Of a stretch of 64,000 bases of DNA, positions 16,923 through 20,622 are shown one piece after another (the stretch's first letter is position 1; the number at the start of each line of letters is the position of its first letter). Where the stretch lies: positions 16,633 through 80,632 of the IMG/VR virus record IMGVR_UViG_3300049811_000333. The stretch is one strand, 5' to 3'. The notes beneath the pieces were generated by a model. It saw nothing but the letters and a program-made list of their open reading frames with translations, was not told the DNA's origin and ran no database searches. The stretch comes from a virus. The translations under genes and the position numbers were made by a program.

Positions 16923-17936
16923 TCATCGTGCGGCCTCGTCAATCTCCTCTTTCGAGAGCTTGTCGGACGGGTAGGTCGAGTAGCCGAGCGAGGACCAGAT
17001 GTGATCCTCGATCTCCTCAGCTGTGACGCCGTTCATCTCCAGGAAGTCCGCGACGTCGTCGGGACGAGAGCGAGCAAGCTCCCGGAGCCGCGCGAATTGC
17101 GATCCCGACGTGAGGGACATCGTCTCGCGATCATACGGGTCAGAAAACCGGGAGTTGTAGCTCCGAAAGGAATTGTGCCAGCCGTCATCGCCGGGCGTGC
17201 GCTCGATGATGAGCGACGAGAGGTCGGCGTTGATGACCGCATCGCGGAGCTTGAAGAGGTATTCCACGTCGAGGGTCTCGTCTCGCGAGTGCTCGTTGAC
17301 GAACCCGACCGAGACGTTGGAGCACTCCGCGATGATGTCGGAATAGTTGGCGGTATCCGTGAAGATGCCGCCGTCGTCCGGCTTGTGATCCATGCCGAGA
17401 GCAAACGCGAGGCTCCGGGCGAAGGCGTCCGAGGCCGTCATGCCCCACCCTTGGTGGGTGATGATGGACTGGGTCCTGCGCCGGTCGAAGGCGACGGCCG
17501 CCTCGATGCCTTGCAAGAGGTGTTGATTGTGCGCGGCGAAATACTTGCTACCGACGCCGCCGGTCTCCTCCTGGCGGTGGAACACGTAGAGGCCCGGAAC
17601 CCCGGCAAGGATCATCTCGCGCAGCATCCAGACCCCGGCCGCGTTGTCCGCTCCGAGGCAATTGGACTCTTTCTCCTCGCGGTGCAGCTTGAGCTTGGTT
17701 CCCTTGAGGGCGATGCGTTGCTTGCCAGCGGTGATGTGAACGCTGTCGGTGTGTGCTGACCACAGGATGCGAGGGCTGTCCCCGATCTTGAGGTAGCGGT
17801 TGCCCTGGTTGTCGCACTCAGCACCCAGTGAGGTGATGAAGCGCTTGATGAAGTCGCGCTCCGAGTTGGAGCCATGCGGCCTGCGATACAGGAGCATGGC
17901 GATGAGCGCTTCGTAGTCCGCGTGTGCGGGTTTCAT
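16923..17936 (-). CDS. Zn-dependent peptidase, M28/M20-like
   Basis: AHTDSVH, LGADNAAG, HRQEETGGVGS, AFDRR, FTDTANY, NVSVGF.NEH metal-ligand motifs. Confidence 0.85.
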   Translation of the reverse strand: MKPAHADYEALIAMLLYRRPHGSNSERDFIKRFITSLGAECDNQGNRYLKIGDSPRILWSAHTDSVHITAGKQRIALKGTKLKLHREEKESNCLGADNAAGVWMLREMILAGVPGLYVFHRQEETGGVGSKYFAAHNQHLLQGIEAAVAFDRRRTQSIITHQGWGMTASDAFARSLAFALGMDHKPDDGGIFTDTANYSDIIAECSNVSVGFVNEHSRDETLDVEYLFKLRDAVINADLSSLIIERTPGDDGWHNSFRSYNSRFSDPYDRETMSLTSGSQFARLRELARSRPDDVADFLEMNGVTAEEIEDHIWSSLGYSTYPSDKLSKEEIDEAAR

Positions 17937-17946
17937 TGTGTCCTTT

Positions 17947-19680
17947 CTAGGCCGCGAGGGCCCTGGCTAGATCTTCTTTTCGGATCTCATCGGAGAACCG
18001 AGAGCGTTCCCATGCGTTCGTGGTGTAGGCGGCAACGATCAAGAGGTCGTGCCAGCTTTTGGAAGGCGAGAGGTCGCCGTGCAGTCCGGACCAGGCGTCT
18101 GCTTCAGACGTGGCAAGGGCTGGCTCTTTCGCGATGTCCGCCTTGTCGTAATACTTGCCGTCGATCTCGATCCCGTCCTCGCGGAAGGCGAACTCGGACC
18201 ACGTCTCGCCGTTCTCCATCTCGTAGCTAGGCACGGAGTCATCGACTCTCGCGTCGAGGCGGTCGCAGTAGTAGGTGTCGCTTTCGATGTGCCACGTTGC
18301 CCACATGACCTCCTCGTATCCGCGAGTGCGGGTGCGCGTTCTGACGAGAACCGCGCCCGCCACGTTGTCGGCGACGTATTCGTCGGACCTGTGGCACCAA
18401 GTCGCATGGTCCCCACGGCAGTGGTTGCACCACGTCTCTGACTCGCGCCTGCCGACTGTGACGCAATACATATCGTCTTCGTCGTAGCTTTCTTCGCAGC
18501 GCTCGCAGGTGCAGCGAGGTCCTGGGTCCTCGCGATTGAGGCCGTGCTGGTAGCAGGCGTCATCGCCGCTATCGGCGATCACGACCCACTCCGAGTTGAC
18601 CTCGCGATAAGCCTGGGTGCCGTCGATGTAGGGCATGACGAGGCAGTCATCGTAACGCTCGTCCTCGATCCGGCGGATTTTCGCGCCGATGAGGTCGGAC
18701 CCGTCCGACTCCTCCTGAGTGTAGCCGAGGTCGCCGAGCATCTTCATAATGCGAAGACTGTCGCCGTAAACCCGGCCGATAGCCTTTTTCTCCGGCCATA
18801 CGAGAGCGCGCGAGGTGATGCGGTCCTCTTTCTTGAGCCTGAGATAGGCCAGCTGGAGGTCGCTGTTGCCGTAGACGTGGACGGGGTGGACGCAAGACAT
18901 ATAGACGTCCCGCCTCTTGGACATGCAAGAGCTCGGACCGCGCGTGTAAACGCGCTCGATCTCTTCGGCCGTGACGGCGAAGCCGAGTTCGTATTCCGCG
19001 TAATCCCGGCCCATATCGCCGACGAGGTTGGCGATCACAGGGTCCGAAAGATGCGGGTAGAATTGCTTGAGATACCGTCCGGGGCGGAGGGTGATCTTGC
19101 GGTTGCGTTTCCCGTACTCCTCGCTCGGCGTGTAGGCCACCTTGGTGGGGTCTTGCGTCGAGATGTGCGCGAAGTGGCCGGGGATGCGGTCGAGGCTGAT
19201 GTCCCACGGCACCGACGCATACTGGCGCTGGAGCCGGAGGTATTCGCGGGCTTCCCAGTCCATGCGGTCGCCAACTTCGTGGAAGTTGTTGGCGTGCTCG
19301 CGCTCGGAGAACCAGTTCGTTGCCTCGGAATACCGGAGGGCGTGGTAAATCCCGTCATAGGCGGGAGACAGGAAGTGCTCCCGCCGCAGGAAGTAGATGG
19401 GGTTGACGCACTGGGCGCCGTAGTTGGTGTAGTGGTGCCGCGCCATCTCGCCCGGAAGGGTGAGCATGGTGTTGCAGTAGCCGAGCATCTTGAAGTGCCT
19501 GGTCAGGCCATCGAGGTCAACGTGACGCTCGATGATGTCCGCGACCCCGGAGGGCGAGGGATACCCGTCCGAGAGAGGGCGATCCCGGAGATCATCCGGG
19601 AGAGCCCGGAGCAAGAGGGCCACCCAGTACGCATTGACGGCGTCCTCGTTGGTGAGCTTGGTGTTCTGGCGGAGTTCCAT
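17947..19680 (-). CDS. 577-aa uncharacterised enzyme-like protein with C-terminal Zn-ribbon motifs
   Basis: GPSSCM, HPVHVYG, SRALVW, GRVYGD, MPYIDG core then CERC/CNHC motifs; GAGGTG RBS before ATG at 19680. Confidence 0.7.
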   Translation of the reverse strand: MELRQNTKLTNEDAVNAYWVALLLRALPDDLRDRPLSDGYPSPSGVADIIERHVDLDGLTRHFKMLGYCNTMLTLPGEMARHHYTNYGAQCVNPIYFLRREHFLSPAYDGIYHALRYSEATNWFSEREHANNFHEVGDRMDWEAREYLRLQRQYASVPWDISLDRIPGHFAHISTQDPTKVAYTPSEEYGKRNRKITLRPGRYLKQFYPHLSDPVIANLVGDMGRDYAEYELGFAVTAEEIERVYTRGPSSCMSKRRDVYMSCVHPVHVYGNSDLQLAYLRLKKEDRITSRALVWPEKKAIGRVYGDSLRIMKMLGDLGYTQEESDGSDLIGAKIRRIEDERYDDCLVMPYIDGTQAYREVNSEWVVIADSGDDACYQHGLNREDPGPRCTCERCEESYDEDDMYCVTVGRRESETWCNHCRGDHATWCHRSDEYVADNVAGAVLVRTRTRTRGYEEVMWATWHIESDTYYCDRLDARVDDSVPSYEMENGETWSEFAFREDGIEIDGKYYDKADIAKEPALATSEADAWSGLHGDLSPSKSWHDLLIVAAYTTNAWERSRFSDEIRKEDLARALAA

Positions 19681-19733
19681 ATTCACCTCGTGGTTGCGTG
19701 AGAGTATTCCCTGTGTATACACACAAGGCATGA

Positions 19734-19811
19734 TGGCGCCCCTACGAGGGATCGAACCTCGATTTCGCAGCCGAGCGGCTTCGCGTCCTAGTCCAGTTAG
19801 ACGATAGGGGC
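19734..19811 (-). tRNA. tRNA-Glu-like RNA 1 (8-nt anticodon loop CCGCTCGG)
   Basis: GCCCCTA/TAGGGGC acceptor, GTCT/GGAC D stem, CGAGG-TTCGATC-CCTCG T arm, G73-CCA encoded. Confidence 0.8.
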
Positions 19812-19818
19812 AGTGAGT

Positions 19819-19896
19819 TGGCCTCGCTTGCGGGAGTCGAACCACGCATTTCGCAGCCGAGAGGCAGCGCGTCCTATGCCATTAGACGAAAGCGAG
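19819..19896 (-). tRNA. tRNA-Glu-like RNA 2 (8-nt loop CCTCTCGG, bulged T stem)
   Basis: CTCGCTT/AAGCGAG acceptor, GTCT/GGAC D stem, GCG(T)GG-TTCGACT-CCCGC, GCCA end. Confidence 0.8.
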
Positions 19897-19903
19897 GAAG
19901 GGA

Positions 19904-20155
19904 TTAGAAGTAGAAGTCAGCGGCGAGGCCATTCCCTTGCCAGACTTCCACACGAAACGGCATCGAGGTGCGCAGGGTGCGCGTGTCTTGATCCTCAAAG
20001 GCGAAGTCTGCGAGCTTCGCAGGAGAGCCGCCGTAGTACGCGATGATCGTGGTGTAGTCGCGCGCACAGCCATCGAACTGGAACGTAAAGTCCTTGAACG
20101 AGAGGAAGCCGAGGCGCAGGTCGCCGTACTTCTCAAGCAATTCGTCGCGCGTCAT
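19904..20155 (-). CDS. hypothetical protein between the tRNA-like RNAs
   Basis: GGAGG RBS immediately after the CCA of RNA 3; MTRDELLEKYG. Confidence 0.6.
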   Translation of the reverse strand: MTRDELLEKYGDLRLGFLSFKDFTFQFDGCARDYTTIIAYYGGSPAKLADFAFEDQDTRTLRTSMPFRVEVWQGNGLAADFYF

Positions 20156-20173
20156 GCGATCCTCCGAGAGAGT

Positions 20174-20249
20174 TGGCGCCCCTGGCGGGAGTCGAACCGC
20201 GCCTTTCACAGCCGAGAAGCCGTATGTCCTGCCACTAGACGACAGGGGC
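20174..20249 (-). tRNA. tRNA-Glu-like RNA 3 (8-nt loop CTTCTCGG, bulged T stem)
   Basis: GCCCCTG/CAGGGGC acceptor, GTCT/GGAC D stem, TACGG/CTGTG stem, GCG(C)GG-TTCGACT-CCCGC, GCCA end. Confidence 0.8.
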
Positions 20250-20256
20250 ATGAGGG

Positions 20257-20622
20257 TTACGGGGATTTACGGAAGTCCACCGCGACGCTGTAGTATCCAT
20301 TCGAGGAGCCCAGCCAGCGCAAGGTGACGTGCCCCTTGATGGTGCCGAACTTGTAGAAGGTCCACATCGAGATGCCGTCGATGCCTTCACCTGCGTCTGA
20401 GTTCTCCTCAGAGGCTTCGAGGATGGGCGAGCCGATGAGGTCATCGAGCGAGCCGATGGTCTCTTCGAGGTAAACGCTTTCGCAGCAATCCTGCATGTGG
20501 CCCATCCAGTAGAGAGAGCCATCATCGAGGGTGAAGCTAAGGCCATCGCCATCATCCACGATAGAGACGATGGTTTTGCCGATGAGGTCAAATACTGGCG
20601 TATTTTTCCAGCCGTACTTCAT
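20257..20622 (-). CDS. conserved phage protein (H.QDCCESV family, DUF7448-like)
   Basis: HMQDCCESV...WTFYKF.T.KG.V.LRW.G.SNGYYS. Confidence 0.75.
   Translation of the reverse strand: MKYGWKNTPVFDLIGKTIVSIVDDGDGLSFTLDDGSLYWMGHMQDCCESVYLEETIGSLDDLIGSPILEASEENSDAGEGIDGISMWTFYKFGTIKGHVTLRWLGSSNGYYSVAVDFRKSP

Follow-up and report, generated by a model that had tools for sequence, protein, structure and literature searches.

A conserved phage gene pair associated with non-canonical tRNA-Glu-like genes: a candidate aminoacyl-tRNA-dependent transferase and a coupled zinc peptidase

Why should a phage carry several tRNA-Glu-like genes with a non-canonical anticodon loop directly ahead of a pair of protein genes? 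The question is raised by a stretch of 64,000 nucleotides (the window; positions 16,633 to 80,632 of IMG/VR virus record IMGVR_UViG_3300049811_000333), taken from a GC-rich (~61%) record of 80.6 kb. On the minus strand of the window, three tRNA-Glu-like genes (RNA1 to RNA3) lie upstream of the gene for a 577-residue protein, here called BIG, which is followed by the gene for a putative zinc peptidase, here called PEP. An earlier reading of the window, made from its sequence only, had proposed that BIG is a glutamyl-tRNA-dependent transferase, or writer, supplied by tRNA-Glu mimics, and that PEP is the corresponding eraser. Here, we describe a computational analysis of this locus and of its relatives in other phages. 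We present evidence that BIG and PEP form a conserved pair, that this pair is associated with the odd tRNA-Glu-like genes in several phage lineages, and that part of BIG resembles GNAT enzymes. We propose, with a confidence that stops a little short of even, that BIG is a transferase dependent on Glu-tRNA, for which non-decoding tRNAs supply the glutamate, and that PEP acts in the same pathway.

BIG and PEP occur together in a broad range of phages. A profile search of 1.84 billion representatives recovered 6,793 members of the BIG family at E values up to 1e-3, and tblastn of BIG against GenBank phages matched 116 records, including KP34-like Klebsiella, Escherichia and Shigella podophages, Vibrio phages, Rhizobium phage Pasto and Bradyrhizobium phage BDU-MI-1. 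Of the 87 loci that contain a complete BIG open reading frame (ORF), 74 have PEP as the next gene downstream, encoded on the same strand and separated from BIG by a gap of mostly -3 to +50 nucleotides, and a "peptidase" gene directly follows BIG in every GenBank record inspected, among them those of SFN6B/KP34-like Drulisvirus, Pasto and BDU-MI-1. To judge from this arrangement, BIG and PEP constitute a widespread conserved phage operon, and the two genes appear to be translationally coupled in most phages. The pairs of KP34 (gp10/gp11), SFN6B, Pasto and BDU-MI-1 are homologous to that of the window and have the same gene order; unlike the window, these loci carry no tRNA genes, and the proteins are annotated as "hypothetical protein" and "peptidase". 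The pair is located in the early region of annotated podophages, and gp10 (hypothetical) and gp11 (putative peptidase) of KP34 are core genes of Drulisvirus with no assigned function (PMC4411677); we found no report of a function for the KP34-type pair in the literature searched. Only seven BIG loci were present in the bacterial genome collection, none of them with an odd tRNA.

Two further features of these loci were observed. In Pasto, an ArdA-like antirestriction gene (locus L002, 1450-1956; numbers with L or G are our handles for phage loci and contigs) stands directly upstream of the BIG homologue, which puts the pair of this phage in an early anti-defence region. In five loci, L118 (G005), L119 (G008), L120 (G010), L124 (G015) and L025, two or three tandem BIG paralogues precede one PEP gene, often as a short, core-only copy of 278-330 residues followed by a long copy; G010 possesses two complete BIG+PEP pairs.

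The RNAs of the window were incompletely recognised by standard tools. ARAGORN reported RNA1 and RNA3 as "tRNA-???" with a two-base anticodon and missed RNA2, and Rfam RF00005 detected RNA3 (39.6 bits against a gathering threshold of 29) and left RNA1 and RNA2 unreported at E values up to 1. A covariance model, R1, was built from 25 odd RNAs, comprising the three window RNAs and 22 from other phages. RNA1, RNA2 and RNA3 score 83.7, 79.8 and 73 bits with R1, matches that arise by construction since all three are in the training set. The alignment of the 25 RNAs supports a cloverleaf: 94.7% of its cells are paired, versus 35-53% when the partners are slid, and compensatory changes occur in 16 of the 21 pairs (115 compensatory cells). 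The 7-bp acceptor stems covary, differing in sequence while always retaining their pairing. CCA is encoded in every RNA, position 73 is G or A, and the variable loop consists of 4 nucleotides and lacks residue 47. The D stem is invariant in 25/25 RNAs (G10-C25, U11-A24, C12-G23, U13.G22). The U11-A24 and U13.G22 pairs and the missing residue 47 constitute the identity elements for glutamyl-tRNA synthetase (GluRS) known as the "augmented D helix", and these D-arm elements, together with an invariant CUC, agree with the glutamate identity set (PMC9976931).

The anticodon and T arms are less orthodox. The strands of the anticodon stem are separated by 8 nucleotides in all 25 aligned RNAs, with the consensus C-CY-CUC-R-G and, in the window, the sequences CUUCUCGG, CCUCUCGG and CCGCUCGG; should the outermost C and G form a pair, the loop shrinks to 6 nucleotides. 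Only RNA3 and the RNA of G012 have U33, and the canonical seven-nucleotide anticodon loop with U33 was not found among the odd RNAs. The T stem is bulged in 8 of the 25, RNA2 and RNA3 included, which may weaken the binding of EF-Tu. Thus, the parts of the molecule read by GluRS and by enzymes acting at the 3' end (D arm and acceptor end) are conserved, and those needed for decoding (anticodon loop and T arm) are degenerate. On this comparative evidence, the three window RNAs are genuine derivatives of tRNA-Glu whose anticodon loop is non-canonical, in keeping with the tRNA-Glu mimics with 8-nucleotide loops of the sequence-only reading. Several pair-bearing phages possess two to five tRNA-Glu-like genes.

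A number of irregular forms were also noted among these RNAs. The T-stem bulge recurs in the 5' strand (GYGYGG...CCCRC) in RNA2, RNA3, G013a/b, G008, G005b, G015 and G010a, and the RNA of L034, an R1 match, has a T loop that is not of the TPsiC type. When the alignment was viewed, the RNAs of L032 and L052 were seen to contain inserts of 40-62 nucleotides in the D loop or anticodon loop; the genes concerned (L032, 2008-2141 and 2647-2756; L052, 2816-2937) score 53-71 bits with R1. Within a jumbo-phage tRNA cluster (L128, 5860-5960 and 5974-6089), R1 matches of 53-71 bits are 24-39 nucleotides overlong. Such overlong genes possibly contain introns or extra arms. Finally, ARAGORN detected an odd tRNA with a four-base anticodon (gata) in G010 (L120, 7507-7579), right after a tRNA-Pro gene and between the two BIG+PEP pairs of that phage.

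Is the proximity of these RNAs to the pair peculiar to one genome? We searched the IMG/VR contigs, 2.9 million in number, for a pattern made up of a tRNA-Glu D-arm, a C-NN-CUC-R-G loop and a T loop, in this order. Nineteen contigs matched, of which three were coding-sequence false positives and 16 contained real tRNAs. A strong BIG+PEP pair was found in 11 of these 16; two others, G006 and G009, have a very divergent BIG (1e-16 and 1e-14) and PEP just downstream of the tRNAs, and the jumbo phage G012 has a 563-residue ORF that matches BIG in the zinc-ribbon region only and overlaps a PEP-like ORF. The remaining two contigs are uninformative because they end 0.3 and 2.6 kb past the tRNA. A BIG-type gene followed by PEP is therefore present in all 14 informative contigs, usually within 4 kb of the tRNA. 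In a control scan for canonical tRNA-Glu with a seven-nucleotide loop, which yielded at least 119 stretches, BIG was found nearby in 0/80 loci and anywhere in 0/47 whole contigs. At the contig level the difference between odd and canonical tRNA-Glu corresponds to a Fisher p of 5e-11, a value that ignores kinship.

The arrangement of these loci indicates that the association is not a by-product of shared genome organization. The odd tRNAs are always co-oriented with the pair, and their position relative to it differs: they are found 30 nucleotides to 4 kb upstream of BIG in the window, G005, G008, G009, G010, G006, G015, L025, L032 and L034, just after PEP (13-470 nucleotides) in G001, L066, L072, L073 and L081, and at a greater distance in G013 (7 kb), G014 (20 kb) and G012 (28 kb). 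Among the 25 window genes around the module, BIG and PEP alone have homologues in other neighbourhoods, which argues against backbone synteny. On the BIG tree, tRNA-bearing phages are scattered, with at least four state changes on well-supported branches and ten by parsimony, although some of these phages are near-duplicates. Glu-type tRNAs are the commonest near the pair, occurring at 9/80 loci versus eight loci for all other amino acids combined. Taken together, these observations strongly tie the pair specifically to tRNA-Glu-like genes with non-canonical loops across several phage lineages. The sequence-only reading had named such a co-occurrence as a check and could offer adjacency as its sole argument; since the association recurs across lineages, the functional link no longer rests on the proximity of genes in one genome.

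The same evidence bears on the possibility that the RNAs are tRNA-Glu(CUC) decoders, either resistant to anticodon nucleases or able to read +1 frameshifts or quadruplets, which hitch-hike in the same early or anti-defence cassette and have no mechanistic tie to BIG and PEP. Phage tRNAs that escape host anticodon nucleases through changes in the loop are on record (PMC10264068), and like the odd RNAs they are altered mainly in the anticodon loop; unlike the odd RNAs, their decoding loop still has seven nucleotides, and they are linked to no particular pair of proteins. The odd tRNA of G012 belongs to an ordinary cluster of tRNA genes 28 kb away from the pair, and in Pasto the pair lies beside ArdA; both would be expected of independent passengers. 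Moreover, an eight-nucleotide loop with UCUC, CCUC or GCUC resembles that of frameshift-suppressor tRNAs. Hitch-hiking would not readily account for the contrast between 14/14 informative odd-tRNA contigs and 0/47 canonical ones, for neighbourhoods that share nothing else, or for tRNAs that lie on either side of the pair according to lineage. Efficient decoding is disfavoured by the lack of U33 in most copies, by the bulged T stems and by the large inserts, and codon supplementation would not usually involve two to five copies of one specificity in a phage. We therefore consider it unlikely that the RNAs are decoders unconnected with the pair.

To what kind of protein, then, are these RNAs linked? 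The AlphaFold2 models of BIG (predicted local distance difference test score of 91 for the whole protein and 94.9 for the domain model) comprise a variable helical N-domain (residues 1-140), a conserved core (140-385), a Cys4 zinc-ribbon beta domain (~386-515) and a helical tail. The motifs picked out by the sequence-only reading, SSCM (250), HPVHVY (265), RALVW (291), RVYG (303) and PYID (350), and the CxxC pairs of the zinc site (C392/C395 and C418/C421) are all present and fall on invariant or near-invariant columns of the family; residues C252, M253, Y270, R291, Y305, P350 and D353 are invariant across it. The BIG family has no Pfam model of its own, and zinc fingers are the sole Pfam domains on its members. 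Scans of BIG with Pfam, NCBIfam (E up to 1), PHROGs and PADLOC returned nothing useful, and a search of PDB sequences with the BIG profile returned zinc-finger noise only.

Structural comparison was more informative. When the whole BIG model was compared with 48,161 chains by VIA-align, the non-helical matches were all GNAT proteins (Z 5.6-4.2), reaching residue 374. With the domain model, the top 50 rows were without exception members of the GNAT superfamily (Z 7.1-5.1, ~89 residues, root mean square deviation of ~3 A), and the GNAT-like region in this search spans residues 224-326. The matches included the aminoacyl-tRNA-dependent enzymes Sbb17 (Z 5.7), FemX (5.3) and MprF (5.3); the top rows of Foldseek, though non-significant, were MprF/aaPGS, PamZ, ATE1 and MYST, and its weak matches abounded in GNAT-fold proteins, Sbb17 included. 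Because the match list is uniformly GNAT, despite modest Z scores, we regard a GNAT-like fold of the BIG core as probable, as a resemblance that does not in itself prove homology. To this extent the models agree with the GNAT/Fem-like fold that the sequence-only reading had named as favourable to a transferase. At the beta4-alpha3 junction, the place of the acetyl-CoA motif Q/RxxGxG/A, the family consensus reads GRIYGDxxRL; it lacks this motif and has no Gly-rich loop. BIG-like folds are frequent among phage proteins in BFVD, always as "uncharacterised", with a weak PcfJ-like match (E 3.9e-3), and the ESM Atlas contained unnamed viral clusters only, plus a weak PcfJ lead (0.85). The similarity of the BIG core to PcfJ-like proteins (PF14284) is weak and of a structural, feature-based kind; the Pfam model fails on BIG, and we know of no function for PcfJ itself.

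A GNAT-like protein linked to tRNA genes might act on tRNA rather than draw from it. BIG could acylate or otherwise modify Glu-tRNA or its anticodon loop, in the manner of the GNAT toxins TacT and AtaT, whose substrate is aminoacyl-tRNA, and so shut down or reprogram host translation, with the look-alikes serving as resistant replacements, decoys or regulators. The genomic linkage supports this possibility as well as it supports a transferase that uses Glu-tRNA, as does the GNAT-like fold; an anticodon loop that varies around an invariant CUC is what would be expected if a protein reads the loop, and zinc ribbons are common RNA-binding modules. However, most pair-bearing phages encode no tRNA themselves and would damage their own translation, the tightly coupled exopeptidase would be left without an obvious role, and eight-nucleotide loops lacking U33 would make poor replacement decoders. 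An attack of BIG on tRNA is, in our estimation, improbable.

The second protein of the pair is easier to classify. PEP matches Pfam M28 at 22.0 bits, just above the cut-off of 21.3, and phrog_4191 ("peptidase") at 9e-76. As a single sequence it matched nothing in the PDB; its profile matched PepT (3gb0, 1e-6), a tripeptidase (3rza, 6e-5) and TET1 (9e-4). The metal-binding and catalytic residues H62, D64, D97, E123, E124, D151, D194 and H216 are invariant in 40 homologues, consistent with the intact ligands seen earlier in the window; which of the aspartates would serve as the fifth metal ligand is assigned by inference. Where PepT has ~180 residues, PEP has a segment of 70, which leaves no room for an M20 lid domain. 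By these features PEP is predicted to be a single-domain metallopeptidase of clan MH (M28/M20-like), whether it is placed in M28 or in subfamily M20B. A predicted complex of BIG and PEP scored 0.01, a result that weighs neither for nor against contact.

The features of the locus are collected in Table 1. The module sits among small minus-strand genes to the left of the structural module, whose genes lie on the opposite strand from ~25 kb. Read 5' to 3' on the minus strand, the order is the DUF7448 protein, RNA3, the 83-residue ORF, RNA2, RNA1, BIG and PEP, all co-oriented, as had been noted from the sequence. The 10-nucleotide gap between BIG and PEP stands; the distance from the end of RNA1 to the start codon of BIG, first given as 54 nucleotides, is 53. 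A putative ribosome-binding site (GAGGTG) lies ahead of the BIG ATG. Also between RNA1 and this start codon is a perfect 12-bp palindrome (TGTGTATACACA, 19712-19723), which could be an operator or form an RNA hairpin at the tRNA-mRNA junction. A scan for promoters and terminators between 16.5 and 21 kb gave no more sites than shuffled sequence.

Table 1. Positions in the window of the BIG+PEP module, the tRNA-Glu-like RNAs and the neighbouring genes
Feature	Position	Strand	Basis or remark
DUF7448 protein, motif MQDCCES	20257-20622	-	Pfam PF24240, 7e-28; context only
RNA3, tRNA-Glu-like; loop C-UU-CUC-G-G; encoded G73-CCA; bulged T stem	20174-20249	-	ARAGORN, Rfam, model R1
83-aa ORF between RNA3 and RNA2	19904-20155	-	no family match; context only
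RNA2, tRNA-Glu-like; loop C-CU-CUC-G-G; encoded G73-CCA; bulged T stem	19819-19896	-	model R1, aligned cloverleaf
RNA1, tRNA-Glu-like; loop C-CG-CUC-G-G; encoded G73-CCA	19734-19811	-	ARAGORN, model R1
BIG, 577 aa	17947-19680	-	translation, AlphaFold2 models, fold searches, family profile
PEP, 337 aa, predicted MH-clan dinuclear zinc peptidase	16923-17936	-	Pfam M28, phrog_4191, PDB profile search, ligands

Two neighbours were considered as members of the module and rejected. Homologues of the DUF7448 protein occur in only two of ~90 related neighbourhoods and those of the 83-residue ORF in none, and both are placed outside the module because neither recurs; the ORF had no family match in the Pfam and PHROGs scans. 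We found no DNA-level similarity between the window and GenBank phages. Elsewhere in the window, a canonical tRNA-Trp(CCA) gene (32503-32577, plus strand) lies just after a portal-size ORF inside the structural module and is the sole ordinary tRNA gene of the 80.6-kb record. The plus strand also contains a stretch of 2,682 nucleotides without any GAG triplet (22802-25484), which covers the divergent junction of the minus- and plus-strand gene blocks. GAG occurs 1,235 times in the 64 kb, the next largest gap is 594 nucleotides, and CTC on the same strand shows no comparable gap; no connection was found between this stretch and the CUC-anticodon RNAs.

How might the parts work together? According to the model that we favour, host GluRS, which charges tRNA-Glu with glutamate, would in this phage and in about one in ten of its relatives also charge the phage-encoded look-alikes. 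These would keep the acceptor end and the GluRS-specific D arm, and their loop of eight nucleotides, or of six when sealed, would bar normal decoding. GluRS (PF00749) was not found in the 80.6-kb record nor in five large pair-bearing phages, so charging would depend on the host enzyme; an amidoligase (PF12224) was not found in the record either. The GNAT-like core of BIG would then move the glutamyl group from the tRNA 3' end to an acceptor amine or hydroxyl, possibly by way of the invariant Cys252, and the zinc-ribbon domain and variable N-domain would hold the tRNA, the target or both. PEP would serve the same pathway as a dinuclear zinc exopeptidase or deacylase, which might, for instance, trim the acceptor end or make it accessible. 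The tight translational coupling of the two genes suggests that BIG and PEP act in sequence rather than in opposition, and the role of eraser once proposed for PEP fits this arrangement less well than that of a consecutive step; of the original writer/eraser scheme, the fold and the co-occurrence have held up and the eraser has not. The ArdA neighbour in Pasto, the tandem BIG paralogues and the variable N-domain hint at a target, and suggest that it may be a host or defence protein.

Several observations weigh against this model. The highest VIA-align Z, 7.1, is inside the range that the tool flags as a possible common arrangement, Foldseek found nothing significant in the PDB for either the whole or the domain model (best E 0.06), and none of the 65 BIG-family members scanned matches a GNAT Pfam model, so that no sequence link to GNAT is available. 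A single GNAT-like lobe was matched in BIG, and residues 140-225 were matched to no fold. To our knowledge, an invariant Cys is not a feature of the known GNAT-fold aminoacyl-tRNA transferases. Fem-type enzymes possess two GNAT domains (PMC12945691) versus the one lobe matched in BIG. In Escherichia coli GluRS recognition, U34, U35, C36 and A37 of the anticodon loop are strong determinants (PMC9976931), and an eight-nucleotide loop with C34 might therefore be charged poorly. The comparative counts are not phylogenetically independent, as they include near-duplicate contigs, and the BIG proteins of L073 and G001 are identical. Finally, ~90% of pair-bearing phages have no tRNA within 5 kb; the RNAs would thus be accessory elements, not indispensable to the module, and the model must assume that host tRNA-Glu serves in these phages. 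What points to aminoacyl-tRNA as the donor for BIG is the genomic association with tRNA-Glu-like genes. It is on account of the modest fold scores, the single lobe matched, the atypical Cys, a loop that GluRS may dislike and a chemistry that we infer that our confidence in a Glu-tRNA-dependent transferase is held below an even chance.

We think it most doubtful that BIG is instead a conventional N-acyltransferase that depends on acyl-CoA, with PEP as a deacylase or peptidase of the M20/M28 type, both acting on a small molecule or peptide without a role for tRNA: acetyltransferases are the best structural matches (Z 7.1-6.0), GNAT and M20 enzymes share a bond type in the arginine and lysine pathways (N-acetylglutamate synthase with ArgE/DapE), and tRNA genes are missing from most pair-bearing phages, but the consensus lacks the CoA pyrophosphate-binding motif, the 0/65 result with the GNAT Pfam model applies here as well, and the association with odd tRNA-Glu genes is left unexplained.

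The transferase that we propose would have precedents outside the viruses. In Staphylococcus aureus, the GNAT-fold FemXAB proteins draw on tRNA-Gly isoacceptors that are non-proteinogenic and that the bacterium retains as donors (PMC7826273, PMC12945691). By analogy, the phage module would resemble this system in its extra tRNAs of one identity, which are charged by a normal synthetase and are ill-suited to the ribosome or EF-Tu (PMC7826273), and both systems have tandem transferase paralogues. They differ in identity (Glu in the phage module, Gly in S. aureus) and in the extent of remodelling, which in the phage RNAs takes in the anticodon loop itself and is not confined to the T stem. In addition, a single GNAT-like lobe was matched in BIG, which contains zinc ribbons and does not resemble Fem proteins in sequence, and unlike FemXAB the phage module includes a coupled peptidase and a viral setting. 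More generally, the GNAT-fold aminoacyl-tRNA-dependent transferases comprise FemX, VlmA, DhpH-C, PacB, Orf11/Sbb17, MprF/aaPGS, L/F-transferase and ATE1 (PMC12945691). They and BIG have in common a GNAT-like core without the acetyl-CoA P-loop; the similarity extends to weak structural matches only, with no significant sequence or Foldseek match, and the invariant residues of BIG (Cys-Met, Tyr, Arg, Tyr and Asp) differ from the Lys that is catalytic in FemX and DhpH-C. Glutamylation that depends on Glu-tRNA outside translation is also carried out by LanB dehydratases and PEARLs (PMC12945691). Their glutamyl donor is Glu-tRNA-Glu, as proposed for BIG, whereas their fold is LanB, not GNAT, and they serve the biosynthesis of ribosomally synthesised and post-translationally modified peptides. 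We know of no dedicated tRNAs for these enzymes. No paper on the odd tRNAs or on the BIG+PEP module was found in the literature searched, the coverage of which was incomplete.

A more general form of the proposal, which we put forward as a possibility that is rather less likely still, is that phages of many lineages possess a hitherto unrecognised family of transferases dependent on aminoacyl-tRNA, which together with a coupled zinc peptidase glutamylates or in some other way remodels a host target early in infection, and that some phages bring non-decoding, synthetase-chargeable tRNA-Glu so that translation is not competed with. BIG and PEP are a core pair of well-studied groups of therapeutic phages, among them the KP34-like Klebsiella phages, and their link to tRNA-Glu provides a testable biochemical lead. 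If the proposal is true, BIG would represent a new family among the few aminoacyl-tRNA-dependent transferases, and the module would be the first tRNA system described from a virus that is dedicated to a non-ribosomal task. It would also account for a class of "tRNA-???" genes that annotation pipelines drop or mislabel, and would supply natural examples of tRNAs that accept an amino acid without taking part in decoding, a property of interest to genetic-code engineers.

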